From positions 1,495,476 to 1,559,475 of the forward strand of contig NC_057756.1 in the NCBI RefSeq assembly GCF_004010195.1: a stretch of 64,000 nt of DNA. The letters are read 5' to 3'. Below the pieces are notes generated by a model that searched no databases, had not been told where the DNA came from, and was given only the letters and a program-made list of their open reading frames with translations. The position numbers and the translations under genes were made by a program. Positions 783-48,120 of the stretch are shown one piece after another (the stretch's first letter is position 1; every line of letters begins with the position of its first letter). This stretch comes from Chiloscyllium plagiosum (Eukaryota).

Positions 783-809
783 CCTTATCTTTTTTGGCCA
801 GTTTTTGTT
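783..809 (-). CDS. Micro-exon, 27 nt: EQKLAKKDK
   Basis: gttaatttcccttAG|aacaaaaactggccaaaaaagataagg|GTgagt. Confidence 0.9.
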
Positions 810-3800
810 CTAAGGGAAATTAACAGCTTTTAAACAGAAAGCGGTGCGCCATGGATGAAACAGAATAGCATGTTTTAAACAATGTAAGCAGAAAATGTCA
901 GTTCCACACTTCATCAATATTTCATTAAATGATTGTTGAATACTGAAGAATGCATTCTTTGCAAAATGGCGAAAACAATGTGTTTTTTTTCCAGGACCTG
1001 ACAAAATACATTTCTATCATATTTCTCTTCTCTTGATTTATTCACTTTTCGGTTGCCTGCAAAATGCAGGACTCAAGTGGACACTGAATTAAATCAAAAT
1101 AATTATACTTCCATGTAGCATATGAAACACTTTGATGCACATTGATTAGAGAGAATGCTGCCTTTCTAATACTGTACATTATAAGGGGCAGCAATTCATC
1201 ATTTCAACTATGGAGTCTCAACCAGAAATTTTGGCTCAAGGCTGTACAATCTTGCATAAATCAATGAGCCAGTCTTTTGGGGAACAAATGGAGCGAACCT
1301 TTGCTTGTCCCTGAGAGAAAAAAATCAGATCTCTATTGTCTTCATTGTTTATTGCATAAGTTTCCACTTTGTTGCATAATTTCTCTCGCATGTGCAAACA
1401 TCTAGCCTGATGTTTCAAGTGTGTATCCCGAGCTCATAACTGTGATCTACTTCTAAGTATGTCCCAAAATTCCCATTGCCTGAAGAACGTGTTCTTGCAA
1501 AAAAAAAAGAATGTACCTCTTTTGTACTTTCAACTCCAATTGCGGAGTGGTTCAGAGGCTCATAAGCTGCGGCCGTGTTTATTAATACTTCACTTGTGGC
1601 AATTGATTTTGCGTATGCAGAATGCATTATGGCAACCTCTAAGTTGGAAGGTTAACAAAGACTGGTTTATTATTTTGTAGATAACGATCGTTCAGCCTAT
1701 TGGATTTTGCTGAACTTCCATCAAAATTATTTTACAGTTTGCTGCTCTACGACCTTCATGCCCAAGTGCAATGGAGGCGTGATTAATTGTAAGTTAAGTT
1801 CGATTAAACCCAAACACTGTCTGCATTGAATGCTGAACATGCTTCCAGGATCAAATGATTTGTCTGCTATTTTAAGTCATAGCACCTGCATTTATCTGTT
1901 TTTCGCATTTTGTATGTTTTTCTTTCTCTGTTTTTGGTTTCATGCTGTTTAAATTTGTATCAATTTTTCTTGCGTTTTGGTCCTTAATAAATAATGTCTG
2001 CAAGTGTTTTTGTTTTCATTTGTAAAACATTGCACAAACCGTTTTCATTTTACATCATGAAACATTCTGATACTTATTCCTTCTGTCTCTTCATTCACAA
2101 TTACATTTGAACTAAATTTATTTCCAACTTATAATTTAATTTACCATGCATTTAGGATTATTTTACTTGAATATTTCTCACGTTCAAATGAACGATCATT
2201 GTTATTTATAATGTTAACTTTGCTCCTGTCTATGTATGCTGCCTATCCCTTTTAAACCTCCTAAAATTTTCATTTAAAATGAAAGTCAGTTCATTTGTTA
2301 AATGGTCACGTTGAAAAGAAAACAAGAAACAGTGATTTGAACTTAGAAATTGATGAATTGAATTAATTATACCTACCCAGTTGAGCAATCTCAGTTTTCA
2401 GTGATTCAGTTTCTGTTAAAGAAAACAATGACTCTCATTAAGGACTGTATGTAGAAATCAGGCTGCTGTAGATCTTTAGAAGCAGGACAGAGTAAAAGTA
2501 ATTATCCATTTGTTTGCATGAATTGTAATTCAACTGTATTCGATAAATTATGCCACATACCAGTGTTCAGGTGGAGACTGCTTGATATAATTGTCATCAG
2601 CCTCAATTATATTTGAATTCCATCATTGTTTACCTCCTATTTTCACGAGTTTTCACTGAATCATATAATACCTATAGTGTGGGGACATGTTATTTAACCC
2701 AAGACGTCAATATGGAACATCCGAAGAGTAACTCACGCAGAACTACTCCTAACATACTACACCTCTTCTACCTACAAATTCCATTACTGGTAAACTATTA
2801 CAATATTTCTGAGTTTCTCAAAGATCTGGAGTCTTTCACAAACTCATTCTGATTGATTCTAACATGGAGCATTGGACTTCAGATATTCAAAAACTGAGCA
2901 CTGAGATTATGGTGTTATCCTTTTCCTCGACCCGCGCTGCTGTCTTTAATGAAAGATCATCACAATGGCCTCTCAAAAAATTGGTTGGGTGCACTAAGGC
3001 CCGTCAAATTTCACGTTGCGGTGGCAGCCAGGTTTGTATTTCAATATGCACCACGAATGTCATCATTGTACAATATTTGTTGATGTACAAAGACAAATCG
3101 CATACAGTAGAAAGTCATTCAGGATAACTGCTGATTGACAAATATATGCATATATCAGAAAAAACTAAACGACGAAATCATGGTCATTTTCGAATACACC
3201 TAACATAAGCAGAATTTGAACCATTCATAAGTGATGTCCTGAAAAGTTGATCGAAGCATATTGTCTGTCCATTGAACGTTTATACAAATGAATGATCGAT
3301 TTAACGGTTCACTGTCCATGTTTTCCATGACATATCACGTTTTCTTAATACCTGATTAGAGATTTAACCCTGACTTTTATTTTTAAAGTCGCCAAACCAA
3401 AATTAGATTTCAATTCCTTTTTTTGGAAACTGTTTGCCAACAATGAAAAGGCTTAACAAGGAGTTACTCATAATGACATATTGACTGTAGTCATTATGAT
3501 CCATCCTTAATATGCATCGTTTTTGATTTGCTGAAACAGAAAGACACTTCCCCTTATCTACGTTGAATAAAGCTGGCATTTCTACCTATTTTCCAGTTAA
3601 TCTTGAAAAATAAATAACATTTGCAGTCTTTCAGCTGCGTTCAGTTGTAAAACAAATTCTGATTGAAACAGACAGAAGTATTTTTTCCTGTTTCCTTGCT
3701 TAACCAGCTGGTTATTTGCTTAAATATATTCTTCATCGACTGTCTCATCTCCTCTGAGGTTTGCCATCCCGTCAAATTTACTTATTTGCAAGCTTACAGC

Positions 3801-6800
3801 TGAAAACTAATGTGAAGCAATTTAACATTTTTAAAAATTAACCAACTTCTGATGTATCTGAAACGTCATTCGTAAAGAAAACTCAGAACCTCCGTTATAT
3901 TTAAGAACTGCTTGCACTTTTCACAATTTGTAACCATTTCAATTGCACACTAATGCCTCATTCCTGTCGCTTACCTTTGCTTTTATTGTCCAACCGAGTC
4001 TCTGGGGAAATAGAAAATAGAAGCAAATTATGCAAAATTAACAGTTACAAGCAGGTTAAAAATCATGTCAGCAACCAAAGGTACAAACAAAACTCTATCT
4101 GAATAAAATAAAATGATATAAAGCACAATGCTCGGAAAATATCCACTCTTCCGATGTACTTTTCTCTGAACTTTCCTCAATAGACTTTTTTTTCAGATAT
4201 CCAGGAAATTCCCTGACTAAAACAACGCATTTACTGTCACCAACTATATTGTCAAATCAGATAAATATAAGTTATTTTCCACCAATGTGATGTTTTTCAC
4301 TTCCTCCATCAGAACTACTTTTACACATTTTAGTTTTGCTCTCGAATACTTTGCCTCAGTTCTCTTTACTTTACTTTTACATTCACAGACTGGTTGTGAA
4401 AATATATTCAAACTTTGAAGGGGAAGCAATAGAAGTAAACACAACTTATTTTGGAACTTCCATAAATACAATGTTAATTTTCATTATTGATGCATCATGA
4501 TTTTCTCTATAAATACCAAATTTATCAGTATGAATGCATAGTGGAACAATTGTCAGTTTAATTATAATTCACAGTGTTCGTTTTTGGGACATGTGTTTCT
4601 CTAACAATTCACCAATTTTATTACCCACGTTATTTTCATTGAGCCATAATGAGTCTTCTTTTACGAAGGTTGGTATGCCGCTATGATTTTAGACGTAGAT
4701 TTCCAATATTTTATAAGAACTATGATGGATTGGAATCAATGAAATTCATCTTGGCGGGACCTTTGATGTGATTGCTTCTCCAGTCACCGATTCAACGTCA
4801 ATGATATTTATGGAGGATATTGATGAGATGTTGCGTTTGACCCTTTCATCTTCCTCATTTCAGTCATGGTTCATCCAGTGTTGATGCCTTAAAACTTTAG
4901 CTGGGCTACGCTATAGTTATTCTTGAGTTTTCTGGGATGATTTTGCGCATTTTGGTTGCTTAAATCAGGCTGAATTCAGAGTCTGAAATAATAGCTTGTA
5001 GATTGAGTAGGAATTGGAAGCATCTTCCGATGTGTACGCCTGTTCGATTTGTTGCTGACAACACTATGCTGCTGTGTAAAAGCTGCAGAACTGCTGTAAA
5101 TATTTCTCCTCGATTATCGGAAAGCATCATAAATTGAGATTCGTGCTTAACTGATTCTCACAAAAGTGAACATTTCTAGTTAGCAGAAAGTCCATGGATA
5201 TTGTTTTTCCCAGTAATTTGTGACGGTGTTTAGCTGCCGGATTAAGTACAAAATGACTTACCAAGATTATCAAAAGCGTTTTTCGTTTTTTCCAACGCTG
5301 TATGCAAAATATAACTCAAATAAGGATGAGTTTGGCAATGTGATTTGCAGGCGCACTCAGAATTAATCTAACCCCGTTGATTTTTTTTATGTTATTGCAT
5401 TGTTTACTTATTCAGGAAAATGATTCTCGATGTCTCAAATGACATCGAATATCTACTCAAAACGTTATTTCGTGTGTTAACAGCGAAACACATTTGAATC
5501 AACGTAGTCCACGTGTCATAATTGAAGTGGGTTGCACAACAATCAAGATCCAACGTGTTTACGTTGTTTTAATTTCACATGGAAACTGTGTAGCCCTTCT
5601 TGAATTACCCTTCAAAAACCAAACACTAGACAGTAGACATTTCGTTCAATAAACTGATGGATTCAATGATATCGATTGTCAAAAAAAAAACATGCGTGGC
5701 TTAACCCATGCATGGAGTTCGAATTTGCAGACCATCAGAAAAAAAATGAGATAGTAACACACAACAGAGAGAAAGCAACAGTAATATTATTGACATCATA
5801 GTTGAGGAAGAATGGTAATGATTTTCAACAGCATTCGGTCTATTTGCATGCGAGCATTAGTGACGTGGATGACTTCTCAAATTGGACAACACGTGGCAAA
5901 ATGCAACTTGAGCAATTGCATAAAATGTTACTGATGATCAACTAATGAATATCAATCATTTGTGCTTCTCATTTCCTGTCATTTCAAAATATAGATAATA
6001 AAAACATTACTTTGCACACAATGGCAGTTAGTCTGTTACATGTTTCATACTCTTGCCGAATATATGCTCCTTAAAGTATCTGCATTTCAAGGGTAAAGCC
6101 GAAATCCACTCTGTTTGCAACGTCTTGAATGTGTAGAGTAGGTTGAACATATATCATCAGAACGAACATAAGAAAAGTTAAATCCCTACTACTATTTCTT
6201 ATATTTGTGTGCATCTAAACTGACAACCATTGCAAACAGAGTAATCCATTTTTGCTTTGTTAGCTCTGATCTCACAAAACCCCAAAATCTAATAAAGTCC
6301 ATTATCGTGACATTTTTGCAGTAATAAAAAAGACGATGTCATTTTTCCTCCATCGTTTCCATAGCATACGTTATAGTAAGTGTGTGAAATTTAGGCACAA
6401 TCATATTATAATTCTGAAGCAGCACATCGTATCAGCTTAACTATTTCTATTCTCTGACGACTGCTGAGTAATGATTAGACAATAGAAACCGGCGAGAAAT
6501 CTTAAACTGGATCTGCTGAAGATAGAGGGAGAAAAATATTTCAAAAAAGTAAAGAAAATCTTGCGAATTTATGGCCAATCAGCACATCCTTCAATGAGAA
6601 AGTTGAGGCTAACAATCTTTTCATAGTGAGGCAAAACATGAAATCATGTTTGGTTTCTTACCTTTTAATTTGTCATTTACGTCGTTTTCTAAGTGCAACA
6701 TATATATAAAACATAGAACATATCTTTAGAGGTGCACCATCGTCTCCATATCACAAAATACAGTCTTTCTCACAATAATAGTTTCTGCATGTTTCATTTA

Positions 6801-9800
6801 ATGAAGAGTAACAGAAAGATATTCACTACGACGATCTTATAGATATATGGGAGTGCTTTATGTTTCAAACATATGAAACATTTTCATTATTTATACATTC
6901 ATCTCAATGTTGTAAAGTAATAATGTTAATAATCTGAAATGTGTGCGCAGCTAGCAAGGCAAGGAGTTCTTGCTCATTCATAATTGACTTGAATTGGCAA
7001 ATACTTGAAATGCTGACAATTATCTGGAAACGGATATTTACAGTTTTATTTGAATCAGAGATGTGCAATTTTGCTTCAGATCTATGGAAAGAAACAGACA
7101 TAACAGAAGCTACGGACTTTAAGTGCGTTGTGGAGGATTACTGTCGTTTGACATTTTGGCTTTTTTCTGTGAGACTTATCGCATTCTAGGATTTTTTGAT
7201 GGAGCCTTGGTCAGTTCGTGTACAAAAAGGGCCTTCACATTGTGATAACCGACGGAAAAATCTTACGCGTGTTAAACAAAGACACATGTTTGAAATTCTT
7301 CTCTGATGATACAAACATTAACAGAATAACAAATAAGGTTATTCAGAGAAACGAGAAACCTATAGTTCATTTGAAGGCATGTATTAAAAAAAAGCGATTT
7401 AACTTGGTTGCAAAGATCATCATGATTTGGCATTCAGAATTTCTTTAATCCTCCGTAGGATTACATGAAATGTTGTTGACCGAAATTTGACATTGACAGC
7501 AGTGAGGGATTCAAGATGTAACAATTATCTGCTTGCTTTTTTGAAAAACAATCTGGAGAAGAATATTTGATTGTTGGATATTTCATAGTATTGCAATAAA
7601 CAATGAGACATCCAAAGTAACTTTTTGATGCAAACAAATTCCATTGTTCTTTTGGCAATAATTTCTAAACTAATAGAAATGACATATCTCACGGGGACAG
7701 AAACAATGAAAAGAACGACCGAATTGATTACCAGCGTTCAAAATAGAAAGACAGGGGCAACTGAATACTTCGTACTCACGGCAGTCCTGGAGTTCAGTTC
7801 TAGATCTTGCCAATTCTGGAATGTGGCAACAATGAGAAATAAGAATGATTATTTTAATTTGACAGAAAACATTTACTGCATAGCTGAAAGTTATCCATTC
7901 AAGTCAATGGCAGCAACAAAATCAATAAAAGCTGCAAAACCACATGGCGTTATTCCCCAAAACAATAATACTGTAAAATCTTCCTTTGAGAAATTATTAA
8001 ATTTAAAATAGGCACGTTGAACAATTGGCAATGACATTGCCAATGATCTATCACTTTGTCACGGAAAAATGAGAATCGATTCAAGGAAAATTAATACATG
8101 TAGAATACTTACAAGAAAAACATAGACGTTAAAAAGTAGTTAGTCAGGGCGATATAACATTTGTAATATTCTAGAAAGCATTGAGTACTACTGAGATAAG
8201 GCAGAGAAATGACAGTGATGATTGGACCGTTAAGTTTTAATTATGGCTTCAGATGTGGTCAACACTGGCATACATGAGTCTAAAATTTCGAAGATAAAAG
8301 AGAAAAATGGTTCCAAGCTACTTTTAGTTCAGAAGAAATATAATTGGACCTGAAACGTTAATTCAACGTTTTTTCCACAGACGCTGCCTGGTCTTTCTCC
8401 CGAATGTTTTTTTCTTTTTCGGTTTTCCAGCATTCGTACTACTTTTAATATTTTAGTTGGAGCTGGGAGTGAGTGATGAAAATTTCCAAGCCCTTGAGCT
8501 TCTCGAACATGTTTTAGAATCGTGATTTTAGTATGAATAAAAGTGTGGGCTCCAACAAGGTTAGCCAGACCTCAGTGATTGGTAAGAGTATACTAATCAT
8601 AGAACTGTGATACAGGGAGCCATTCAAAAGGGTGTGGAAAAGACAACAAATGTTTCTGTAATCGGGGACTGTACAACTAGGGAAAAGGTGATCTCTCGTT
8701 GTCAGGATGGAAAGTACAAAACGCTGCCTGGTGGCCTGGATCAGCAAATATTTTTTGGGTTGAAGAGAAACTTGGATTGAAAGGGGAAGGATTGAGTTGT
8801 CGGAGCCCACATGGGCAAAAGCAAAAAAGGGAGGAAAAGAAAACATGTTCTTCTCAAGGAATATGAGCAGCTAAGGGCTAAATTATAAAACATAACCAAA
8901 AGGAGAATATTCTCTGGATTGCTACCTTATTCACGAACCATGTGGAATCGAGTTTACAAGACTAAAAATGTAAACTGGAGTGCTATGATGAAGATTAGTT
9001 GGAAGACAGAGAATTGAGAATTCTTTAACACAAAGCAGCAAAGGACAAAAAGTCAATAAAGTGTAGAAGATGTAATATGTGAGTAAGTTAGCAAATAATA
9101 CAGAAGAATATGCAGGAGATTTTTTTATATATTTAATAGTAAGAAAGAGGCAAGAGTAGACGTTGCACCACTGAAAATGTCAATTAGCGAAAGTAGCAAT
9201 GCAGGTCAAAAAGTCACGGTTGAACACAAAGGGTACCTTCTATTCGTTTTCATTAAGGAAGCAGTAAACCAGAGCGTTAAGAAATTCAAGGGCAGAGATG
9301 AGTCAAGCGACCATCGCTGAGGACAAGGTACTGTGGTATTTGTAAGTTATGAAGGTTCTGATGCAGGTATCTGAGGAAATCCTCGATGCTTTGGCGGTGA
9401 TCCTTCAGGAATACGTGGAGTCAGGATTGTAGCAGAAGTCCGAAAAATAGCTATTGTAATAATCTCTGCTTTCGGACGGGAGGGAGGCAGAATACCTGAA
9501 ACAAGATGTTGATTAGACAGACCGCAGTGATAGGTAAGATTTTAGACGTTATTATTAGGAATAAGATTGCAGAGTACCTGAAAGTGCTTGTTAAATTAGA
9601 GCTCAGACAGCATGGCTTTGTTACCGAGAGGCCATGCCTGACAAATCAGTTAGACTTGTTTGAGGAGGTAGCATGCTACATAGACAACGGACGGCTGATA
9701 GACAGGATCTTCTTTGATTTCCAAAAGGCCTTTTGCAAGGTCAAGAAGACAGGAGGACAACACAGTGCACAGAATACTGCTAATGTGTTAACGATAAAAT

Positions 9801-36800: not shown

Positions 36801-36842
36801 TTTTGTGACGTTGCAATGCAAGTTTATTCGATGGTGTGTGTG

Positions 36843-36904
<62 letters not shown>

Positions 36905-39900
36905 CAAACACACACACACATATGCATGGTATTTGTGATACTGAGCAAGCTAACGATAACTTTGTTTTGTCCCATGCAAACGTGCATCGCATTTATTATC
37001 CTGATATGGAAGTCTCTCATTTTATTACTTATGCAGTTTTTTTTCAGAAATTCCCTTTTTATACCTGAAATTAAGAAAGATGATACATTGATGATGACAC
37101 AGAATAAACAAAGGACCTCAGATATGTTTTCATTGCAAGTTGAAAGTTATATTACAATCCCTATAGTGAAGTGTAATTCTAGTAAACACATAATTCCTTT
37201 ACCTTTATCTTTCATCTGCAGCCTTTCTTCTATTTAAATGAACAATAGTATGTATTAGATCTGATTTGAACACATTCTTTAATCTAATAGCAGAAACACA
37301 TATGCACAAACCAACTGAAATAGAAAAAAAACTATCGTTCAATTACTGAACTGAAAACAATAAACTAATTTCATAAGAAATGTTAATCACTTTGCACTCT
37401 TACTATGTTGTAATAATCAGAAGTACAATTCGAATTGTTCATCAAGCATGATGCAGATCAACACCACCGTAAGTGCAATGTTTTTAGACTTTTTTGATTA
37501 GTTAGAGCACATGAATTCATTAATCTGCCTGTCTCAGTTTAAAAGATCATCCGTGCGTGATATTCGCTTTCTGATAGAAGTTGGATTACATCTTCTACCT
37601 TGCTTTTGGATATAACATACGTTGTTTTGGTTCAAAAGCTCATATGGCAATTAATTATGCAACAGGAAATCGTACAATTTTGTAATGTGACAAGAAGCTT
37701 ATCACTCCAGGCTTGGTGATGTCAAAACCGTGTATCTTGACCAAGTTGCATTAATATGCTAAATGATAAATAGATTAATTGCCTACAATATTTTGAAGAA
37801 AACTAATGCGCAGTCAGCAAATTAGAAGGCTTAAGGTGGTGAAGGAAACTGTAATGCTGGCAGTTAATGCTGAGCAACCAGAAATCATTGCACACGTTGG
37901 CACAAATGACACAGGTAGGAATAGGAATGAGATCCTGCAGAGTGACTACGGAGAGCTAGTAAAAAGAAAAGTTAAGAACCATGACCTCGTTAGTGAGAAT
38001 CTTTGGACTACCTCCAGTGCCACGAGATAGTGATGATAAGAAAAGAGGGTATAGCAAAAAAATGCGTGTCTAAAGAAATCGTGCACGCAGCCGGGATTCA
38101 CATTTCTAGAATATCAGGATACTTTCTGGGGTAGGGGTGACATGTTCAAGAGGGATGGGTTGCACCTGAACTGGAATATCTTGGGGACCAAATTTGTTCA
38201 TGCTGCAAGCGTAGGTTTAAACGAGACCGTCGTGCGGGCGTGGTGTTGTGTGGGATCATCACAACATAGAACATAGAACACAGAGCATAACAGCGCAGTA
38301 CAGCCCCATTGTCCCTCGATGTTGCAGCAACCTGTGGAACCAAACTGAAACCCATCTTTCTGACACTCTTCCATTGTTGTCAATATGCAAGAGAATTAAT
38401 ATTGTTGGCGAGTCTACTACTGTTGCAGGCAGTGTGTTCTACGCCCCGACTAATCTCTGAGTAAAGAAACTACTTCTAACATCTGTCCTACATCTATCAC
38501 CCCTCAATTGAAAGCTATGTCCCCTCATGCTAGCCATCGCATCCGAGGTAAAAGGCTCTCTTTTTCCAAACTATCTAACCCTCTGATTATCTTATACATC
38601 TCAAATAATTCGCCTATCAACCTTTTTCTCCCAAACTAAAATAGCGTCGTGTCCCTCAGCTTTTCATTCTAAGACCTTCTCTACATACTAGGCAATATGC
38701 AAGTAAACACACCATACAGCTTCGTAATAGCCCTTTCAACTTGTCTGGCAACTTCCACAGATCTATGTACCTGTACACCGAGATCTCCCTGCTAATCTAT
38801 GCTACAAAGAATATTGTTATTAGCCCAATAATCTTCATTCCTGTTATTCCTTCCAAAGTGAATCACCTCACACTTTTCCACATTAAACTCAATTTTCCAC
38901 CTCTCAGCCCAGCTCTGCACCTTGGGACAAGTAACCATAGTTCTATAAATATTAAAATACTTCCAGAGAGCGACAAAACTAAATTAGAGTAAAACGAATT
39001 TTAATAAAATTAGACAGGATCTCGTTCAGGTTGATTGGACTAGTTTGCTTGCAGTTAGAGACACATCTGACAAGTGGGAGTCCTTTAAAAGTAAGGTAGC
39101 CAGAGATCAATGTCTATGTGTTCCCGTGAGGGTGAAGTGTAAGTTTGGAAAGAACAGTGAAGCCTATTGAATCTTTTAACAGAAGAAGAAAGAAGGAGAC
39201 GTGGCTCATGTACAGGCAGCTGAGATCAAAGAAATATCTGGAGGTACATAGGAATTTTAGGATTTATTGAAGAAGAAAATCAGGAGGTCGAAAAGGCGGA
39301 ATTAAATAGGCATGACTCAGATGAATCCAAAGAGGTATGTAATGTATATCAAAGGAAAAATTAAAGAATAACTAGGGAGAGGACCATCAATGATCAATAT
39401 GGACATGTACGAATAGAACCGTAGGAGGTGGGAGAGGTTCTCAATGAATATTTCTGCTCTGTGTTTAGCATGTAGAAATACTTAGACATTTGGGGAATTA
39501 GTCATGATATCTTGTGCACAGACCATATACAGTCGAGGAGGTGTTGGATGTCAAATGAAGGAGGACAAATCTGCTGGTCCTGACCAGATATATCCAAAAA
39601 CACTGCCAGAGGCTAGAGAAGAAATTGCAAGGGCCTTGGCTGATATTTTTGCATCATCATTAGCCACGAGTGAGATCCGAGAAAGCTGTCGGGTAACCAG
39701 TGTTGTGCAATTATTGAAGAAGGGCTGCAGTGAAAAGTCTGGGAACGATAGACCAATAACCTCAACAACTGTGGTTTGGAAGTTATTTGAGAAGATACTG
39801 AGCGATAAGATGGACATGCATTTGAAAATAAAAAATGGTTTGTTTAGGACTAGTTAGCAGGTTTTGTGAGTGACACATCATAGAACAGAGAACGTAGAAC

Positions 39901-42900
39901 AGTACAGCACAAACCAGCTCTTCGGCCAACGATGTTGTGCCGAGCATTTATCTTAAGAGCAATCTAACCTGCACTCCCCTCAATTTACTGCCATTCATAC
40001 GCTTGCCCAGCAGTCACTTAAATGTCCCTAATGTCCCTGACTCTACTACCACTGCTGGCAGTGCATTCTATGTCCCAACCACTCTCTGAATAAAGAACCT
40101 ACTCTGACAACTCCCCGTATCCTCCTCCATTCACGTTAAATTTATGACCCCACATGACAGCCATTTCTTTCCTGGGGAAATGAATATGGGCATATTATCT
40201 ATCTATGTCTCTTATTACCTTCTACACATATTTCAATTCACCTCTGTTCGTTTTCCTTTCCAGTGTGAAAAGTCCAAGCTAATGCAACCTCTCTTCATAA
40301 GACAAACCCTCCAAACCAGGCAGCATCCTGGTAACTCTCTTCTGCACTTGTCGAAAGTATCTACATCCTTCCTATTATGAGGCGACCAGAACTGGACACA
40401 ATATTCCAAATGTGTTCTAACCAGGGCATAAAACCTCATGGCTCTTAAGCTGAATGTTAATGAAAGACAAAACACCATACTCCTTCTTAGCAATTTTATC
40501 AACTTGAAAGGCAACTTTGAGGAATATATATACGTGGACCCCAAGATCTCGCTTTTCCTCCATATTGCCAAGAATCCTGTCTTTAACACTATTTTCAACA
40601 TTCAAATTTCGAACTTCCAAAATGATTCACATTACATTCATTCAGTTTGAATTCCTTTCAGTCACCTTTCAGACCAGACCTGCATCCTGCCAATACCTCG
40701 CATGTCTCACCAGTCCGTCAGCATTCTTTTAAGGAAGTGATCAGGAAGGTTGACGAGGGCAGGATGGTAGACGTACTCCGTTTGAATTTCAGTAAGGCCT
40801 TTCGTAAGGTTCTACATGCAAGGCTGCTTTGGAAGCTTAGATCGCATGCAATCCAGGGCGAGCTGGCAAACTGGATACAAAATTGGCTGGATGATAGGTA
40901 GCAGGGGCTAATAGCGGAAGGATGCTTTTCAGTCTGGAAGCCTGTATCAAGTGGAGTGCTGCAGAGGGCAAAGTGTTGGTCCCATTACTGTTTGTTATTT
41001 ACATCAATGATTTAATGAGAATGTACAAGGCATGATTAGCAAGTTTTTCTGACATCATTAAAATAGGCGGTAAATATAGACAGTGATGAAGATTATCAAA
41101 TATTGAAGCAGTACGTTGGTCAGCTGGGGAAGTGTGCTGACAAATGACAAACTGAGTTTAAATTAGATAAGTTTGACGGCTTGTATTTGGAAACATAAAA
41201 CAAAGTGGGAGTTTTATGGTGAATGGCAGGGCCTAAGGGGTGTAGTGGAACAGAGGATCTTGGAGTTTGGCTTTATAGTTTTCTGAAAGTGGAGTCACAA
41301 ACAGATTAAGCAGTGACATAAGCTTTCGGAACACTGTCCTTTATCAGTCATCAAACTGAGTATAGAAGTGTCAAAGTTATGCTACAGTTAAATAGGACAT
41401 CGGTAGGCTGTGCTTGGTGTATTTTGTTCAGTTTTGGTCACCTTGTTATAGGAAGGATGCCATTAAACTGGAAGGAAAGCGGAAGATATTTACAAGAATG
41501 TTGCCTGGCCTCTATTCAATGGTTGGAGTTATAGGGAGTGGTTGGACAAGGTAGGACTTCTTTCTTCAGCACTAAGGAGACTGAAGGGGAAACTAATAGA
41601 AGTGTACAAGATCGTGATAGGCATAGTTAGGGTGAATGCACTGAGTCTTTTTCTCAGGGTTGGAGAATCGAGGACTGGACAGCACCAGTTTAAGTTAAGA
41701 AGTGGAAGAATAAAAGGGAACCTGAGGGACAACTGTTTTATTACACAGAGGGTAGAATGCATATGGAATGAGTTGCCCGTGGAAATGGTTGATTTCCCCA
41801 CATTAACAGCATTTAAAAGGCATTTGGACAAATACATGGTTCTGAACGGTTTAGAAGCATATGGGCCAAGGTCAGAGGTATGAGGTTAGCTTGGATGGAC
41901 ATTTAGCTCGGTATGGACCAGTTTATGCCCAAGGGCCTGTCTCCATCCTTTAGGACTCGATAACCCCATAACAATTGTGGGTCATAAATGTACATAACGG
42001 AATCACACTGAAAGGACGATTTTCTTCCTCTGCTGAAGGTGGGTAATAGTAGAGATACACACACAAGAAACGTAACTGAACAAATATCTAAAAAGATCAG
42101 GGCAGAAAAACACTGGAATGAATGAAACAAAGGAGGATATTCATATTAAGACAATAAATGATATCTATAAAAGTTGTCATGAATATGTGTTAAGAAAACT
42201 GTATGGGAAAAATCTGCTGGAATGAGCTTCACATTAGCACAAATATTTGAGGCGGAAATCTGTCATACAAAGAGTTAAACACAATTATGGTTACTGAGGA
42301 ATGATTTTAGGAAAAGCAGAAGTTGGAACTGAATGTGGTAATACGTATTTATTTTCATATAGATATATTGCAAAGTGACAATGTTGAATAGCTTTAATTA
42401 TAAAGTATAACTTAAATTTCAAAAAGGCACAGCTAATGAACGATAGTACTCAAATACCAATCAATTCATAGTAATAAAACAATTAAATGGAAACATGATA
42501 AGCTTATACGTAAACTTCAGACCACTTCATAGATGCAACTGTAAAGGAAACTGTAAAGCATTGCTCTACTTTGGAGAGACCGGACACATTCTCACAGAGT
42601 GCTTCAGAGAACATCTCTGGGACACCGCACCAATCAACCCCACCACCCGTGGTTGAACATTTCAACTCCCCTTCCCACTCTGCAAAGGGCATGCAGATCC
42701 TGGGCCTCCTTCATCACCACTCCCTGACCACCTGACGTCTTGGCGAAGAATGCCTCGTCTTCCTCTTCGGGACGTTTCAACCCCATGGTATCAATGTGGA
42801 CTTCACCAGTTTCCTTATTTACCCTTCCCCATCTTTCCCCAGTTCCAACGTCTCAGCTCAGCACCATCCTCATGAGCTGTCACACTTGACAATCTTCCTT

Positions 42901-45608
42901 CCCACCGATCTGCTCCAACCTCTTCTGCGACCTATCACTTCTTCCCCACCTCCATCCATCTATTACACTCTCAGCTATCTTCTCCATAACTGCACCCACT
43001 TCCACTTATCTCTACACCCACGAAGCACCTAGACTCATTCCTGATGAAGGTCTTTTGCCCGAAACGTCGATTGTTCCTGCTCCTTGGAAGCTGTCTGACC
43101 TTCCATGCTTTTACAGCACCACTCCAATCTTGACTTTTATCCTGAGCATTACAGACCAGTCAGTCTCAAGTCTGTGTTGGGTAAAAATGATGGAGAGAAT
43201 TCTGAGACAGGATTTGTGATTACTTGGAACAACATGGTTTGATTACAGACAGTCAGCATGACTTTCTGAGCGGCAGAAATGTTATTGAACACTTTGACGA
43301 TGCGACAAAACATATTGTTAAATTTAGAGCAGTGGATATGCTGCACATGACTTTTCTTTGTCATTGCATTTGGTCAAGTTTCCCATGGTATGATCATTCA
43401 GAAAGTAAGAAGGTATGGGACACGTAAAAATCTGGCAGTCTGAATAAAGAATTGGCTGGCCCACAGAAGACAGAGGTTGGTGGTACATGGGAAGTATTCA
43501 GCTTGAAGCTTGGTGACCTATGGTGTTCCACAGAAATTGGTTCTGGGACCTCTGTTGTTTGTGATCTTTATAAAAAACTTGGATGAGGAAGTGCAATGGT
43601 GGGTTAGCAAGATTGCCAATGACACGAAGGCTGGTGGAATTGTGGATAGTGTGAAGGGCTGTTGTAAATTGCATCGGAACTTTGGACAGGATGCACAACT
43701 GGGCTGATAATTGACAGATGGAGTTCACCTGAAAAAAATGTGAACTGATTCACTTTGGAATTTCGAATTTCAAAATGCAGGGTTAATGACAGGATTGTTG
43801 GCAGTGTGGAGGAAAAGAGGGATCTTGTAGTCCATCTCCATAGATCCTTCAGAGATACCACTCAAGCTGCTAGGGCCTTTAAGGAGATGTAATGTCTGTT
43901 AGCTTTCATTAGTAGTGGGATTGAGTTTAAGTGCCATGAAGCTATGCCACAGTTCCATAGAGTCCTTGTTACACCACATTTAGAACATTATGTTCAGTTC
44001 TGGTCTCCTCATTATAGAAATGAAGTGGAAGTTTTAGAGACGATGTAGAGGAGATTTACCGGAATGTTGCTTGGACTGGAGGGTAAGGTTGTAAGAGTTA
44101 GGTATTTTCCCATTGGAGAGAAGAAGGATGAGAGTTGGCTTGGTAGCGGTCTGAAAGGTGGAGAAAAGCATCCTTAGATTGACGTTTTCCCAGGGCGGAA
44201 ATGTCAATCACATGGTGCCAATCCTTTTAGGTGATTGGAGGAAGCTTCAGCCGAGGTATCAGATGTAGGCTCTTTAGACAGCGAGTGGTGGCTGCGTTCA
44301 GCAGTCGCAGTAGAGTACTTTAGGGACATCTAAGCGACTCCTGGATAGGCACATCGAAGATAGTACAATGAAAGGTATGCAGGTTAATCCCATTTTGGAG
44401 TAAGATAAAAGGTCAGCACAACGTCGAGGGCCTAATGGATGGTACAGTGGTACACTGTTCTACCTTCTACGTTCTAAGTGGAAGAAATGGGCGTTGTATG
44501 GCAATTTGAAGGTGTTAAATTCAAGGTTTAGTCCAGAAGGATGTAAAATGCCGAGTTTGAAGATGAGATGTTGTTCGTCCATTTGACTCAAGAAACTAAA
44601 ATTGATACACCATTTGTCCTCCAACACCTTACATCCAATAATTCCACCACCGCCACCCCCAACTTAGACCATAAATCTTGTCCTCTCCACACTTCACTTC
44701 ATCTTTGAAGAAGAGTCATGTTCTTTCTACATGGATGCCACCTGACTCTCTGTCAATTGCAGCATTGTTGCTTTCAATATAGCAACTTAGACGAAGCATA
44801 ATTGAAATCACTTGTTTAAAAGTTCATGACTAATATCATGTTCATAGTTTGGTGATATTGGTCAAAATTCCACGCCTTGATTATAATATTATAAACGAAA
44901 AACATTGTGCAAACTCTCGATAATAGAGTGCAAAGTTTATTCGCTGACAAAGAAAAGCCGACAAAAAAATACTTCTCACATGTCATTTATGAGTATGAAA
45001 CATTAGTGAAATCCATGGCACATAATAGGACCTGACTAAATAAAGGATCTGTACAGCGTGTTTTCACGTTATCATAGAATCTGTACAGCGTGGAACCAGA
45101 TCATTCTATCTATAATGTCCATAGCGATATCCAAATGCATCCCACCCGGACCCAGCCAAACCCCATAATCCTGCATTTCTCATGGCTAATGTACCCAACC
45201 TACACATTCCAGGATAATACGGGCCAATTTAGCATGGCCAATCAAATGAATCTGCACATCTTTGGACTGTGGGAGATAACCTGAGCACGCAGAAAAAACC
45301 CACGTGCACATGGGGAGCATATGCAACACTGTCAATATATATGAAAATGAAAACAAAAAAACAACATTCCAAGCGAAATAACAAAGTAAATAAGCAATAT
45401 TTAATTGGAAGATGAACGTAAATAACCCATTTTCTTTAAAAGGTAAAACTGACTTTCTGTAGCAGTTCAAAATTACACCTATTCAAATCACGTTTCGACA
45501 ATTAACAACTGGTTCCATGCCCAAGTCTGCTTAAATCTTCTCACTTCTGCATCAGTTTCCTTTTCGCCTTACCCAGTTCGCTGATCAATTTTTTAAGATT
45601 TTCGACTT
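783..45608 (-). CDS. Partial multi-exon gene: at least 18 alternating 36/27-nt micro-exons encoding a 21-residue-periodic coiled coil (5' and 3' ends not seen)
   Basis: All 18 exons have a pyrimidine-rich AG acceptor and a GT donor, lengths of 27 or 36 nt, and phase 1-1. They join into one stop-free 558-nt frame with heptad hydrophobic spacing. Gene identity unknown. Confidence 0.9.
2377..2412 (-). CDS. Micro-exon, 36 nt: ETESLKTEIAQL
   Basis: cattgttttctttaacAG|aaactgaatcactgaaaactgagattgctcaactgg|GTaggt. Confidence 0.92.
3975..4001 (-). CDS. Micro-exon, 27 nt: ETRLDNKSK
   Basis: ttctattttctatttccccAG|agactcggttggacaataaaagcaaag|GTaagc. Confidence 0.92.
5262..5297 (-). CDS. Micro-exon, 36 nt: ALEKTKNAFDNL
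   Basis: ttatattttgcatacAG|cgttggaaaaaacgaaaaacgcttttgataatcttg|GTaagt. Confidence 0.88.
6662..6688 (-). CDS. Micro-exon, 27 nt: QNDVNDKLK
   Basis: tatatgttgcacttAG|aaaacgacgtaaatgacaaattaaaag|GTaaga. Confidence 0.86.
7780..7815 (-). CDS. Micro-exon, 36 nt: ELARSRTELQDC
   Basis: ttgttgccacattccAG|aattggcaagatctagaactgaactccaggactgcc|GTgagt. Confidence 0.88.
8600..10650 (+). mobile_element. Degenerate CR1 LINE (ORF1 remnant plus ORF2 reverse transcriptase)
   Basis: ORF 9506-9823 has RQHGFVTERPCLTNQLDLFEEV...IFFDFQKAFCKV, matching the CR1 RT motif QHGF...CLTNL...DFQKAFDKV; many stops around it. Confidence 0.85.
10150..10324. mobile_element. Short palindromic Penelope-derived insertion inside the CR1
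   Basis: Inverted arms agagtcgacagtgtattgctgggaaagcacagcaagt / acctgctatacttttccagcaacacactctcgactct, similar to the Penelope 3' ends at 20405-20530 and 43060-43130. Flanked by an apparent direct repeat, tttt(c/t)gaaacgg. Confidence 0.65.
11026..11052 (-). CDS. Micro-exon, 27 nt: DEKIRRNDQ
   Basis: gtttttctttgttaacAG|atgaaaaaattcgtcggaatgaccaag|GTaaac. Confidence 0.9.
11690..11725 (-). CDS. Micro-exon, 36 nt: EIAALQKKLQDL
   Basis: tcttcttgtttccccttggttgcAG|aaattgcagctctgcagaaaaagcttcaagatttag|GTgaga. Confidence 0.92.
   Translation of the reverse strand, partial: KLQLCRKSFKI
13000..13560 (+). repeat. Unclassified probable interspersed repeat inserted at the CR1 ORF1/ORF2 junction
   Basis: GC-richer block interrupting CR1 homology and ending in ...gatggcgcc...tgttacaataag...aataaa; family not assignable by eye. 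Confidence 0.35.
15781..16100 (+). mobile_element. tRNA-derived SINE (HE1-like)
   Basis: Head ggcggcatggtggctcagagg (A-box-like), gacccgggcgtgattcc (degenerate B box), core gtaggtggattaactgtgctgatttgcc, CR1-like tail gggccaaatagtc...ggatctatgaatctatga. Confidence 0.8.
16290..16515 (+). mobile_element. 5'-truncated HE1-like SINE
   Basis: gatgtacaggttaggtggattagccatgctaaattgtccattgtgttcag...gggccgtaaggcacgcttccacattgtag. Confidence 0.75.
17246..17272 (-). CDS. Micro-exon, 27 nt: DEAMREKNG
   Basis: ccaactttttcgttAG|atgaagcaatgcgtgaaaagaatggag|GTacaa. Confidence 0.83.
18895..19080 (+). mobile_element. Degenerate HE1-like SINE fragment
   Basis: Similar to the 3' half of the SINEs at 15781 and 16290, ending ttgtttccacactggagggattcta. 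Confidence 0.5.
20405..20850 (-). mobile_element. Penelope-like element 3' fragment
   Basis: ORF 20259-20822 begins VEECLTFHLAILQPHGINAYFTSFHISL, homologous to LEEERLIFRLGTRQPQGINVDFNSFQISP in ORF 61376-61996. Confidence 0.8.
22660..22695 (-). CDS. Micro-exon, 36 nt: EIESIRKKIEQL
   Basis: catctttcttttttgcaAG|aaattgaaagtatcagaaaaaagattgaacaattgg|GTaagc. Confidence 0.9.
23698..23724 (-). CDS. Micro-exon, 27 nt: KESLDGKDS
   Basis: tggatttcttacAG|aagaaagtttggatggaaaagactcag|GTaaaa. Confidence 0.87.
24060..24780 (-). mobile_element. Degenerate CR1 3' fragment
   Basis: gaccaaaatgtcacacaatattccagatc is the reverse of the LEYCVxFW motif; WN motif region near 24250. Confidence 0.6.
25595..25621 (-). 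CDS. Micro-exon, 27 nt, occupying a 36-nt slot: EIEGVRQKC
   Basis: cattttcctatttcAG|aaattgaaggcgttcgacagaaatgca|GTaagt; peptide aligns with the first nine residues of the 36-nt class (cf. EIESIRKKI). Confidence 0.82.
26019..26093. repeat. Imperfect (CA)n/(GACA)n microsatellite
   Basis: cacacatacacag...cacacacgacacacacgcagagacacagatagacagacagacagacacac. Confidence 0.8.
26453..26479 (-). CDS. Micro-exon, 27 nt: EEQLKLKTQ
   Basis: gtatttctttcatcacAG|aggaacaattgaagctgaaaacccaag|GTaaag. Confidence 0.9.
28216..28251 (-). CDS. Micro-exon, 36 nt: ELEPLKMDLSSK
   Basis: cattttttcatatatcAG|agctagaacctttgaagatggatctatctagtaaag|GTacct (weaker donor). Confidence 0.8.
29870..31150 (+). mobile_element. 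Very degenerate CR1 ORF2 remnants
   Basis: gaattcttaaaatgtgtccagcagggacttttagccag (FLKCVQ-like) and tgactggaaaccaatctccagt (DWKP.SS-like), both CR1 ORF2 landmarks. Confidence 0.5.
31239..31265 (-). CDS. Micro-exon, 27 nt: EEELSQKKK
   Basis: ccatttgtttaacAG|aggaagaactgagtcaaaaaaagaaag|GTaaat. Confidence 0.88.
32541..33365 (-). mobile_element. Relatively young, 5'-truncated CR1 LINE (RT C-terminus plus 3'UTR)
   Basis: ORF 32627-33340: QRDLGVLVH...LYRALVRQHLEYCVQFWSP...RRLRGDLIETYKI...TRGHSLK...FTQRV-like...WNALP, open for about 210 codons, followed by the CR1 3'UTR. Confidence 0.95.
34453..34488 (-). CDS. Micro-exon, 36 nt: GLENLRQSLKDT
   Basis: cctttggttcctttcAG|gtcttgaaaatctgcgccagagtctcaaagatactg|GTaaga. 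Confidence 0.9.
35095..35980 (-). mobile_element. Degenerate CR1 3' fragment
   Basis: ORF 34975-35388 contains KRVVGSWNILIGGV...NFKRHL (WN.LP...FK..LD motif); CR1 tail near 35100. Confidence 0.65.
36835..36921. repeat. (TG)n-(TA)n-(CA)n microsatellite
   Basis: tgtgtgtgtatatata...tatataatcaaacacacacacaca; roughly 60 bp of near-perfect TA. Confidence 0.95.
37203..37229 (-). CDS. Micro-exon, 27 nt: EERLQMKDK
   Basis: ttgttcatttaaatAG|aagaaaggctgcagatgaaagataaag|GTaaag. Confidence 0.85.
38263..38920 (-). mobile_element. Nested antisense CR1 3' fragment
   Basis: Starts with the reverse-complement tail acatagaacatagaacacagagcataacagcgcagtacagcc; RT C-terminal remnants follow. Confidence 0.75.
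39879..40700 (-). mobile_element. Nested antisense CR1 3' fragment
   Basis: Tail catagaacagagaacgtagaacagtacagc; ORF 40233-40601 has ALVRTHLEYCVQFWSPH; host CR1 RT resumes at ~40700. Confidence 0.85.
42555..43140 (+). mobile_element. Penelope-like element 3' end (GIY-YIG C-terminus plus terminal repeat)
   Basis: ctctactttggagagaccgga...cttcagagaacatctctgggacacc...gaacatttcaactcccc, homologous to 61250-61700. Confidence 0.85.
43036..43072 (+). ncRNA. Minimal type-I hammerhead ribozyme motif (Penelope-associated)
   Basis: attc-CTGATGA-aggtcttttgccc-GAAA-c-GTC-gatt: conserved cores, stem II with one mismatch, palindromic ACGT stem III, GUC cleavage triplet. Confidence 0.65.
43150..44478 (+). 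mobile_element. Degenerate CR1 RT 3' portion
   Basis: LITDSQHDFLSGR; GVPQKLVLGPLLFVIFIKNLD...SKIANDTK (FADDTK-like); tail ttctaccttctacgttcta. Confidence 0.9.
45071..45332 (-). mobile_element. HE1-like SINE
   Basis: atcatagaatctgtacagcgtggaa...caatttagcatggccaatcaaatgaatctgcacatctttggactgtgggag...cccacgtgcacatggggag, reverse complement of the SINE core seen at 16290. Confidence 0.8.
45573..45608 (-). CDS. Micro-exon, 36 nt: (E)VENLKKLISEL
   Basis: Minus strand ttttttgctttattctcAG|aagtcgaaaatcttaaaaaattgatcagcgaactgg|GTaagg. Confidence 0.88.
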
Positions 45609-45851
45609 CTGAGAATAAAGCAAAAAACAGGATTTACACGATGAGTAAATAGTAGGTGCAAGAAAAAGAAAATGATGTCACTTTATTTAAAAGTCATTAT
45701 TTGCAATCTTAGTCGTTATAAATATAAAAACACTGGAGCATCAATCATATTTACTATACAATACCGTCAATCGGATGACTAATTTAGTGACTGTGACGGA
45801 CAACAAGCAGCTATTAAAACTGATGTTATTTTTTGTCACTTGATCCTTAAC

Positions 45852-45881
45852 CTTGTTTTTCCCGCTGTTTCAAGCACACAT
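45852..45881 (-). CDS. Candidate upstream micro-exon, 30 nt: (x)VCLKQREKQ
   Basis: ataatatttAG|atgtgtgcttgaaacagcgggaaaaacaag|GTtaag. Phase 1-1 with L at position 4 and R at position 7 like the 27-nt class, but 3 nt longer and with weaker splice sites. Confidence 0.45.
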
Positions 45882-45904
45882 CTAAATATTATAGTTTCAG
45901 AGCA

Positions 45905-46730
45905 ATAGTGACTTACAGCATGACACAGACCCTTCAGTCCAACACCTCCATTTCAATCATATGTCGTAAATTAATCTTGCCCCATTTGCCAGCATTTGTC
46001 CGCTATCCTTCCAAATCCTTCCTGTTCGTATACCCATCTGGATGCCTTTTAAATGTTATAATTGAAGCAACTTCTACCAAATCCCCTGGCAGTTCATTCC
46101 AGGCACATACCACCCTGAGTGTGAAAATGATTCCACTGAGATTCCTTTTAAATCTTACTCCTCTGCCTTCAACGCTCCAGGGAAAATAACTCCAGCCTAT
46201 TCAGATCACCCCATAGATTAAACTATCCATTCCTGGCAAAATCCTTTTAAAACTATGTGTGACACTGTTTAAGCTATCGTTATACGTGGAGAGTTCTAAA
46301 TTCTCACTACATTTTCCATGAAATAAGCTATTCTCTCATGTCTCTCTGAAGCCTCTAGACTTTACATTATACCAAAGCTCCCAGTCAATATTCTCTCCAA
46401 TAAAGAGAAAGAAGTCCTACCTGTCACTCTGATCGCTGCCCCCATACATTATGTACATAAAAACGTCCTCTCTGAATCCCCTGTTCTCGAAGGAAGTTAT
46501 GAGCAGTTTATTTAATCTTTCTTCAGTACTAAAACTATCCAGTCAAAGGAAATACTAATTATTCTCCTGTGTACTTTCTCCGGTGCTCTCCCAACCCTCG
46601 AATACTATGGATTCCAGAACGGCTCACAATAGTTTAGCTGTGGCCGAAGTAACATTTTGAACAGTTCCAGTGTAGCCATCCAGTTATCAAAATCTCTGCC
46701 TTCGTTAATAAAGATAATCCCTCTATTCAA
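45905..46730 (-). mobile_element. Degenerate CR1 3' fragments
   Basis: tacagcatgacacagacccttcagtccaac tail; ggcagttcattccagg (reverse of WNELP); ccagaacggctcacaatagtt (reverse of YCEPFW). Confidence 0.65.
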
Positions 46731-47699: not shown

Positions 47700-47930
47700 G
47701 ATCCAACATTTCCTCATCATATTGGACTTTCCGTCTTCATGGCACAGTAGAGTCAAGAAGCATCAGCACAAGAATAAGTTTCTGCCTATTGGGACTGTGG
47801 GTCAACCCACAGCAGGTGGACTGCAGCAGTTCAAAAAGGTAGCTCACCACCACCTTCTGAATGAAACTAGGGACAGGCAATAAATGTTGGTCAAACAGTG
47901 ACACATATATCTCACAAATGAACAAAATAA
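47700..47930 (+). mobile_element. LINE 3'-end fragment (clade uncertain); a related antisense copy lies near 32020-32500
   Basis: ggactgcagcagttcaaaaaggtagctcaccaccaccttct...ctagggacaggcaataaatgttgg; its reverse resembles gaaggtggtagtgaactatcttcatgaaac at ~32061. Confidence 0.5.
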
Positions 47931-48120
47931 AAAGTCATATTATTTTGATCTGGCAGCTTTATTGCCAAGTCGTAGCGATTTATTACAGTAATGTGAAAAC
48001 AATGTTATCATTTTACAAACATGCTTCCACCAAGGTATTTGAATGGTTTATCGTGGTCTTTTTCTGACGTTTTACTACGTACACTTGATTAACCTGAAAT
48101 AGTCTTGATGTTTTCCTGCT

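Follow-up and report, generated by a model that had tools for sequence, protein, structure and literature searches.

Can a gene be assembled from exons of only 27 and 36 nt that are dispersed over tens of kilobases of a single strand? The question is raised by a 64,000-nt stretch of contig C47 of Chiloscyllium plagiosum (G000:C47:1495476-1559475, in an assembly of 3.56 Gb), which we call the window; coordinates given without a contig label are window positions. A sequence-only reading of the window had proposed that it hides 18 minus-strand micro-exons that splice into one long coiled coil. We located all 18 unambiguously on the minus strand between 783 and 45608 (Table 1), each bounded by AG and GT and in phase 1-1, meaning that an exon opens with two bases completing a codon and closes with one base starting the next. 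Their lengths follow the proposed order (36,27,36,27,36,27,27,27,36,27,36,27,36,27,36,27,36,27), the joined product of 558 nt holds 185 whole codons plus split ends and 0 stops, and the arithmetic by which a 36+27 pair encodes 21 amino acids, or three heptads, is correct. As set out below, the window is likely an internal quarter of one minus-strand gene of ∼297 kb (approximately C47:1,296,626-1,593,823) that encodes a very long coiled coil, with almost all of its coding sequence in such micro-exons, and ends in a B30.2 domain.

The minus strand of the window contains 457 AG..GT segments of 27 or 36 nt, 292 of them open in phase 1. The coding set is distinguished among the open segments by polypyrimidine/YAG acceptors, GTRAG donors, and translations rich in E, K, and L. 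A fixed filter on acceptor and donor quality, at least 40% E/K/Q/R/D, and no C/W/P/F/Y/H retained eight 27-nt and two 36-nt exons on the minus strand of the window in phase 1, and 0 on the plus strand in all three frames. The shuffled-sequence control suggested with the sequence-only reading gave means of 0.115 (27 nt) and 0.075 (36 nt) over 200 dinucleotide shuffles, with a maximum of 1. Over 264 kb, in which lengths of 12 to 120 nt were scanned, the 27-nt class had 19 exons and the 36-nt class 9 on the minus strand in phase 1; every other length gave at most 4, and every other combination of strand and frame gave at most 3 exons of 27 or 36 nt.

We also scored each candidate in a leave-one-out position-weight test that takes in sequence context at the acceptor (20 nt) and at the donor (8 nt); AG and GT were required of every candidate and hence are not themselves a test. 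Seventeen of the 21 window candidates outscored all plus-strand AG..GT candidates (1066 of 27 nt and 1124 of 36 nt). Three extra candidates outside the original 18 (40476-40502, 18803-18829, and 17609-17644) did not rise above the plus-strand background in this test. The exon at 25595-25621 was weaker on the 27-nt profile, on which 10 of the 1066 plus-strand candidates score as high, and its splice sites are strong. By its sequence it is an exon of the 36-nt type, truncated at an earlier GTAAGT donor, which accounts for the run of three consecutive 27-nt exons. Based on the strand, frame, length, and shuffle controls together with the leave-one-out profile test, we conclude that the micro-exon pattern is far beyond chance and that the exons are real.

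The array extends past both ends of the window. We examined ∼296 kb of flanking C47 DNA and scanned the window plus 270 kb of adjoining flanks (334 kb in all) with iteratively trained profiles, taking the best plus-strand score as the threshold. Above it stood 64 exons, 34 with a length of 27 nt and 30 with a length of 36 nt. Of these, 63 keep an open frame: 10 lie upstream of the window, 17 fall within it, and 36 lie downstream. In window-relative coordinates, the first recognized exon is at +98313..+98348 and the last 36-nt exon at -169689..-169654, so that the array reaches from +98 kb to -170 kb. Exon length alternates in 54 of 62 neighboring pairs, and the introns have a median of 2.9 kb (range, 410 to 24,482 nt). 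The hidden coiled-coil gene is therefore supported as a gene, while the window itself holds only about a quarter of its array.

A scan for B30.2 exons beyond the window, another check suggested with the sequence-only reading, found a single phase-1 B30.2/SPRY exon at the 3' end of the array (C47:1296626-1297146, minus strand), 28.6 kb past the final 36-nt exon. Its frame comprises 196 open codons and matches Pfam SPRY at an E value of 4.3e-15; Pfam PRY was unmatched at E ≤ 0.001, and the sequence preceding SPRY can be aligned to the PRY region in relatives. The acceptor consists of a polypyrimidine tract and CAG, and the two bases that follow finish a codon, giving the exon the phase of the array; with the final G usual among the micro-exons, they form a Val codon. 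The profile found no further standard exon between the array and the B30.2 exon (C47:1301500-1305475, ∼4 kb, lies outside the scan). The predicted last coil exon, the truncated exon at C47:1323840-1323866, the linker exon at C47:1299263-1299289, and the B30.2 exon are colinear with little-skate protein P0158 (“TRIM69-like”). Among solved structures, the butyrophilins BTN3, BTN2A1, and BTN2A2 match the domain best (96 bits; E = 1.5e-26 to 1e-21), and TRIM7, TRIM58, and TRIM21 reach ∼77 bits (E of ∼1e-20).

The two exon classes encode distinct parts of one repeating unit. The 36-nt exons have the 12-residue consensus E-[IL]-E-K-L-K-x-x-L-Q-D-[LT], and the 27-nt exons have the 9-residue consensus [ED]-E-K-L-R-x-K-E-K. 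Together they form a 21-residue unit of three heptads, with hydrophobic residues at positions 2, 5, 9, 12, and 16, corresponding to a, d, a, d, and a. Joining the 63 open exons with 25595-25621 gives 1989 nt and 662 residues with 0 stops, including 116 E, 107 K, and 97 L. The hydrophobic periodicity of this product peaks at 3.5 residues, where its power is 1.57; 500 shuffles averaged 0.18 and reached at most 1.05. The last base is G in 60 of 64 exons, the first bases are AA, AT, or AG in 54 of 64, and the split codon specifies Glu or Asp at 52 of 63 junctions.

Different units share no nucleotide similarity detectable by blastn in the exons or their 400-nt flanks (all 8 matches were overlapping flanks of adjacent exons), so the duplications are old. 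Length, phase, splice sites, and residue pattern have been retained despite this divergence. Information content is 0.57 to 0.79 bit at codon positions 1 and 2, 0.28 to 0.34 at position 3, and ∼0.08 in deep intron; the first two positions hold two to three times the information of the third, a comparison that is partly circular in that the seed exons were picked by a residue filter in the same frame. The array shows what appear to be signs of protein-level constraint.

Two 36-nt-type exons are cut to 27 nt, namely 25595-25621 and C47:1323840-1323866. Both end in a basic residue followed by Cys and have A as the last base, and in skate P0158 this motif directly precedes the linker, a hint that an exon of the terminal type may have been copied into the middle of the array.

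To place the gene, we searched with its B30.2 exon. HMMER returned 2687 matches at E values up to 0.001, and the best single-domain BLASTP matches, at 120 to 150 bits, were all chondrichthyan coiled-coil-plus-B30.2 proteins, others scoring at most 115. The relatives come from little skate (XP_055510696), electric ray (XP_069775384), catshark (two genes, XP_038672306 and XP_038668997), elephant shark (XP_042191566), and basking shark (XP_078422387), and NCBI automatic names call them TRIM69-like, A33-like, TRIM39-like, or TRIM58. They have a coiled-coil N terminus and no RING, B-box, or Ig; in P0021, P0023, and P0031, SPRY is the one Pfam family matched. Their models span 175 to 460 residues with at most a few 12/9 units, and they have the linker before B30.2 in common with this gene. 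Skate P0158 is built of 9- and 12-residue units, and a profile of the 21-residue unit gave weak repeated matches in ray and skate proteins (best domain E, 0.004 to 0.007). Catshark isoforms differ by a 9-residue cassette and electric-ray isoforms by 9- and 6-residue coil cassettes, differences that skipping of 27- and 18-nt exons would produce.

Some of these models may be incomplete, as one is a B30.2 exon alone and one opens with retroelement-like sequence. Residues 1 to 41 of P0023 (catshark XP_038668997) match a repeat-like stretch of the window at 132-248 on the minus strand (tblastn E = 1.7e-6), so this gene model probably has its start in a transposable element.

A tree of 28 B30.2 domains, for which 26 database rows were handpicked from 150 listed matches with their architecture scanned, separated nine coiled-coil-plus-B30.2 rows from 19 TRIM/BTN rows at a support of 100/100, with the bootstrap not fully settled. 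The nine-row side holds this gene, a paralogue, skate, ray, two catshark rows, basking shark, elephant shark, and one unnamed row. As judged by these comparisons, the gene appears to be a giant member of a chondrichthyan coiled-coil-plus-B30.2 clade without RING/B-box or Ig.

Similar arrays occur elsewhere in the genome, all of which was searched with degenerate exon patterns of 35 places. The total for the first pattern was close to that of its reversed-pattern control (52 versus 44), and the signal lies in the clustering on C47 and C37 alone (Table 1). A SPRY family search gave a match at C47:4577660, just past the third C47 cluster and in the same orientation, which we used as a query. Five related B30.2 exons stand out at E ≤ 1e-30, compared with ∼1e-21 to 1e-28 for the general B30.2 pool, and the reciprocal search agrees. 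The four paralogues of this gene have intact B30.2 frames of 177 to 209 codons, and each of the three C47 B30.2 exons lies ∼23 to 32 kb downstream of a micro-exon pattern cluster of the same orientation. An immune-recognition role is plausible, given the B30.2 family, the multigene expansion into several arrays, and the position of the C37 arrays on the same contig as TRIM/butyrophilin expansions.

The same contigs carry further domain clusters. On C37, exons for B30.2, B-box, and butyrophilin-type IgV/IgC have undergone very large expansions between about 9 and 34 Mb, and four tandem single-exon C-type lectin domains lie at C37:19.235-19.248 Mb. About ten weak IgV-like matches at C47:8.5-9.0 Mb (27 to 32% identity to butyrophilin IgV) form an unrelated Ig-superfamily cluster. 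Within the window, 60001-64000 is C rich (GC, 0.50; GC skew, -0.40) with several long plus-strand ORFs, one of which (62925-63998) matches RVT_1 (E = 7e-7) and represents a retroelement fragment inside the 24.5-kb intron of the gene. Three short, very-high-copy repeats lie at approximately 10121-10787, 16124-16790, and 20126-20782 (DNA depth of 46,000 to 113,000 versus 10 to 30 elsewhere); a 110-nt tandem repeat occupies 496-696 (1.8 copies, 95% matches), and a (TA)30 microsatellite occupies 36843-36902. Rfam gave no match in the window.

Table 1. Exons, candidates, and related features of the array. LOO, leave-one-out profile score; fractions give the plus-strand candidates scoring as high. 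Locations without a contig label are window positions.
Feature	Location	Strand	Evidence or remark
36-nt micro-exon, phase 1-1	45573..45608	-	LOO 26.6; 0/1124; strong polypyrimidine/CAG acceptor, GTAAGG donor
27-nt micro-exon	37203..37229	-	LOO 35.7; 0/1066
36-nt micro-exon	34453..34488	-	LOO 26.0; 0/1124
27-nt micro-exon	31239..31265	-	LOO 41.3; 0/1066; also genome-wide pattern match
36-nt micro-exon, weakest of 17 robust	28216..28251	-	LOO 9.2; 0/1124
27-nt micro-exon	26453..26479	-	LOO 29.9; 0/1066
27-nt exon, 36-nt-type sequence, GTAAGT donor	25595..25621	-	LOO 3.6 (27-nt profile); 10/1066; start fits 36-nt class
27-nt micro-exon	23698..23724	-	LOO 31.3; 0/1066; pattern match
36-nt micro-exon	22660..22695	-	LOO 31.9; 0/1124
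27-nt micro-exon	17246..17272	-	LOO 23.4; 0/1066
36-nt micro-exon	11690..11725	-	LOO 44.7; 0/1124; pattern match
27-nt micro-exon	11026..11052	-	LOO 35.6; 0/1066; pattern match
36-nt micro-exon, last base C not G	7780..7815	-	LOO 13.3; 0/1124
27-nt micro-exon	6662..6688	-	LOO 18.7; 0/1066
36-nt micro-exon	5262..5297	-	LOO 21.8; 0/1124
27-nt micro-exon	3975..4001	-	LOO 26.5; 0/1066
36-nt micro-exon	2377..2412	-	LOO 28.4; 0/1124
27-nt micro-exon	783..809	-	LOO 26.7; 0/1066
Extra 27-nt candidate (outside the 18), unproven	18803..18829	-	Open, coil-like, AG/GT; LOO -2.4; 45/1066
Extra 36-nt candidate, unproven, probably not real	17609..17644	-	Open, coil-like; LOO -29.2; 776/1124
Extra 27-nt candidate, unproven	40476..40502	-	Open; LOO -7.2; 126/1066
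Part of 24.5-kb intron with retroelement fragment	45609..64000	-	No profile-positive exon; next upstream exon +70091..+70117
Well-spliced phase-1 27-nt exon	C47:1323840-1323866	-	Between array and B30.2 exon
Linker exon, well-spliced phase-1 27-nt	C47:1299263-1299289	-	Between array and B30.2 exon
Two less certain 27-nt exons	C47:1306360, C47:1301098	-	Between array and B30.2 exon
B30.2 exon, this gene (match span)	C47:1296638-1297162	-	42% identity to C47:4577660 query
B30.2 exon	C47:994509-995036	+	60% identity to C47:4577660 query
B30.2 exon	C37:22229878-22230375	-	40% identity to C47:4577660 query
B30.2 exon	C37:20720070-20720591	-	33% identity to C47:4577660 query
Pattern cluster, this gene	C47:1.335-1.573 Mb	-	Degenerate patterns
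Pattern cluster	C47:0.707-0.971 Mb	+	Degenerate patterns
Pattern cluster	C47:3.97-4.55 Mb	+	Degenerate patterns
Pattern cluster	C37, about 20.06 Mb	-	Degenerate patterns
Pattern cluster	C37:21.02-22.13 Mb	-	Degenerate patterns

We consider it likely that the array is a real gene for a coiled-coil rod of ∼100 nm with a B30.2 head, probably cytoplasmic and homo-oligomeric, whose cassette exons allow length variation that is safe for the frame. About 32 units of 12+9 residues would make an alpha-helical rod, a coiled coil of some 660 to 700 residues, its length following from the coiled-coil rise of ∼0.148 nm per residue. The rod would lead through short linker micro-exons into the single-exon, C-terminal B30.2 (PRY/SPRY-type) domain. 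By pairing with itself, it would present two or more ligand-binding B30.2 heads on a long stalk, a presentation that we liken to that of butyrophilin tails and TRIM coiled coils; both the oligomerization and the cellular location are predictions. All of the exons are multiples of 3 in one phase, and skipping, duplication, or loss of any of them therefore keeps the frame, so that the length and sequence of the stalk may be tunable by splicing and unequal crossing-over. The gene is probably expressed; RNA over 783-20782 (two single-cell poly(A) runs and one possible RNA contig set) showed no exon-pair junction, one run and the contig set matching only the three high-copy repeats and the other run matching nowhere, which is uninformative at ∼2 to 6% of the runs read.

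Several observations weigh against this proposal. At the sixth core place of the unit (position 19, or position 7 of the 27-nt exon), 25 of 34 exons have Lys instead of the hydrophobic d residue that the heptad pattern calls for, which is unusual for a canonical dimeric coiled coil. Splicing of these particular exons is predicted. No start exon, leader, Ig, RING, or B-box was found in the 66 kb upstream of the first micro-exon (∼5.9 kb of which is N). No relative of 518 to 2000 residues was found in the protein collection by word-based searches, which is weak evidence; those for long or near-length relatives gave one teleost TRIM and the query's own cluster only. The alternation of exon lengths is broken at 8 of 62 neighboring pairs and is irregular in the downstream half, so some exons have been missed, have been lost, or have another length. 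A profile-positive 36-nt candidate at -33596..-33561 (C47:1461879-1461914) has an in-frame stop; it lies within an alternation gap and may be a dead exon.

In one alternative, the array would be the tail of a canonical receptor of the butyrophilin/BG type, with its ectodomain exons more than 66 kb upstream or in assembly gaps. Introns of up to 24 kb occur in this gene, the B30.2 domain best matches solved BTN3, BTN2A1, and BTN2A2, and heptad micro-exons with split end codons followed by B30.2 make up the butyrophilin/BG layout (available text of PMC4046983 and PMC12841164). Skate P0158 opens with a 17-residue hydrophobic segment followed by basic residues, which could be a transmembrane exon in a 5'-truncated model. 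Yet none of 140 minus-strand ORFs of at least 70 codons between +94 and +164 kb matched V-set, other Ig, RING, B-box, or transmembrane-associated families at E ≤ 0.001. The butyrophilin-type IgC family PF22705 had 65 matches among its 96 candidates, all 96 scored, and 0 on the whole 10.7-Mb C47. A butyrophilin IgV query from a close relative (84% identical to a C37 locus; 93 of 93 candidates scored) had none near the three C47 arrays and only weak matches on C47, at 8.5-9.0 Mb. The B30.2 clade is, moreover, split from the sampled BTN domains at a support of 100/100. We therefore regard a canonical receptor tail as rather improbable.

Further searches covered the 5' end and other domains. Upstream of the first micro-exon, the domain-bearing ORFs in the 66 kb are retroelement pieces and one C2H2 zinc-finger ORF (L020:404-1132, minus strand, or +144404..+145132; 243 codons; zf-C2H2 E = 4.6e-32), which lies 46 kb upstream and is probably a separate gene. 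A scan for hydrophobic leaders yielded a single ATG-to-donor candidate at +109552, against a chance rate of ∼1 per 10 to 17 kb, and tblastn with the N termini of relatives gave nothing convincing for a 5' exon. The C-type lectin family PF00059 had 90 matches among 133 of 133 candidates scored and 0 on C47; B-box had no C47 match among 150 scored of 312 candidates, and a generic V-set search, with 150 of 1319 candidates scored, was uninformative. A CD23-like lectin stalk was dropped on the lectin result, a TRIM protein with RING/B-box on the 140 upstream ORFs and the C47 B-box search (150 of 312 candidates scored), and a canonical butyrophilin on the lack of IgC on C47 and of IgV near the arrays. 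Of the exon types that the sequence-only reading had proposed to look for beyond the window, B30.2 was found, whereas Ig and lectin exons were not, as far as tested, and its suggestion of a receptor was not borne out, since no Ig or lectin exon could be assigned to this gene in the upstream ORFs or in the C47 IgC, IgV, and lectin searches.

The stop-bearing candidate, the irregular alternation downstream, and the lack of a 5' exon in 66 kb would also fit a decaying or silent array that was formerly functional and no longer yields one transcript in this species. Such decay is hard to reconcile with 63 of 64 profile-positive exons being open, 60 of 64 retaining the final G, and 17 of 21 window candidates beating the plus-strand background. 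The B30.2 exon keeps an intact frame of 196 codons, as do the four paralogues over their 177 to 209, and the introns have diverged past recognition while exon length, phase, and residue pattern persist. We consider decay very unlikely.

An extracellular rod, either secreted or a type II membrane stalk holding B30.2 heads off the cell like the necks of CD23 and langerin, is just as doubtful, for although phase 1-1 cassette exons typify extracellular modules, P0158 opens with a hydrophobic leader, and bowfin P0065 combines, in type II order, a transmembrane segment with a long repetitive coil and B30.2, the basic residues that follow the P0158 segment would leave coil and B30.2 cytoplasmic under the positive-inside rule, the electric ray, catshark, and elephant shark relatives lack a hydrophobic leader, the P0065 B30.2 falls on the TRIM/BTN side of the tree, and no C-type lectin exon occurs on C47 (133 of 133 scored).

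Beyond the cytoplasmic rod with a B30.2 head, a broader scenario is conceivable, if on balance unlikely: sharks and their relatives may possess an undescribed family of giant B30.2 “ruler” genes, each with tens to perhaps hundreds of interchangeable phase-1 micro-exons over 0.3 to 1 Mb, that serve a splicing-based diversification of innate recognition, with the heptad-exon-plus-B30.2 cassette perhaps ancestral to butyrophilins. If so, combinatorial exon choice would yield rods that differ in length and surface pattern and carry a binding domain at the tip, and the ancestral module may later have joined Ig exons to give rise to butyrophilins.

Several known systems resemble parts of this gene. 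In CD23 (FCER2), each 21-residue heptad repeat is encoded by a separate 63-nt exon, and elastin has alternating small cassette exons, all of one phase. In both cases the likeness is one of gene design alone: CD23 terminates in a C-type lectin domain, of which C47 has none, and elastin is not a coiled coil. Class IV TRIM proteins (TRIM39, TRIM21, TRIM69, and “zinc-binding protein A33”) likewise place a coiled coil before a SPRY-type domain, but this gene lacks RING and B-box as far as searched, leaves Pfam PRY unmatched, and has a coil that is several times longer than a TRIM coil and encoded by micro-exons. The short chondrichthyan models share its B30.2 clade, 12/9-residue units, and linker but have at most a few units, compared with ∼32 here.

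The closest parallels are the BG and butyrophilin genes. In the available text of PMC4046983, chicken BG genes form a multigene family whose heptad region varies in length and in which a long predicted coiled coil is encoded by many very small exons with split end codons. These exons are 21 nt (7, sometimes 8, residues) and follow IgV and transmembrane exons, with a 3' untranslated region exon at the end and no B30.2 in the gene as described there (PMC4046983). Butyrophilins have IgV, IgC, a transmembrane segment, and only “a few” heptads according to the same text (PMC4046983), and the accessible part of PMC12841164 places them in cartilaginous fishes. Like BG, this gene has an array of very short whole-codon exons with split end codons that encode heptads; unlike BG, it uses 36+27 nt per three heptads rather than 21 nt per heptad, has more than 60 exons over ∼300 kb, and ends in a B30.2 exon, and no Ig exon was found. 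It resembles butyrophilins in having heptad repeats followed by a single-exon B30.2, and in its best matches among solved structures, and it differs from them in that no IgV or IgC accompanies the C47 arrays and its B30.2 falls in a separate, well-supported clade. The proposal of an architecture analogous or related to the BG/butyrophilin heptad exons is thus supported by the continuation of the array, the in-phase terminal B30.2, and its best match to BTN.

The two-exon, 63-nt module had been put forward as one not recognized from any named gene. A literature search on such exon designs gave papers on BG and butyrophilins only; neither the 36+27 module nor giant arrays nor this clade was described in what it returned. 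The gene extends the “one heptad, one exon” design to cartilaginous fishes, with a different module and on a far larger scale, and bears on how the butyrophilin and TRIM B30.2 families were assembled. It also points to a class of genes overlooked by ORF tracks and, probably, by standard gene predictors, the nearest annotated models being short or truncated, and it offers a natural test case for spliceosome recognition of long runs of 27-nt exons between introns of several kilobases. What was already known is the heptad-exon principle of BG and butyrophilins, together with short members of the clade as automatic gene models. What is new is a giant 36+27-nt variant of the heptad-exon-plus-B30.2 design, related to yet distinct from the BG and butyrophilin genes.

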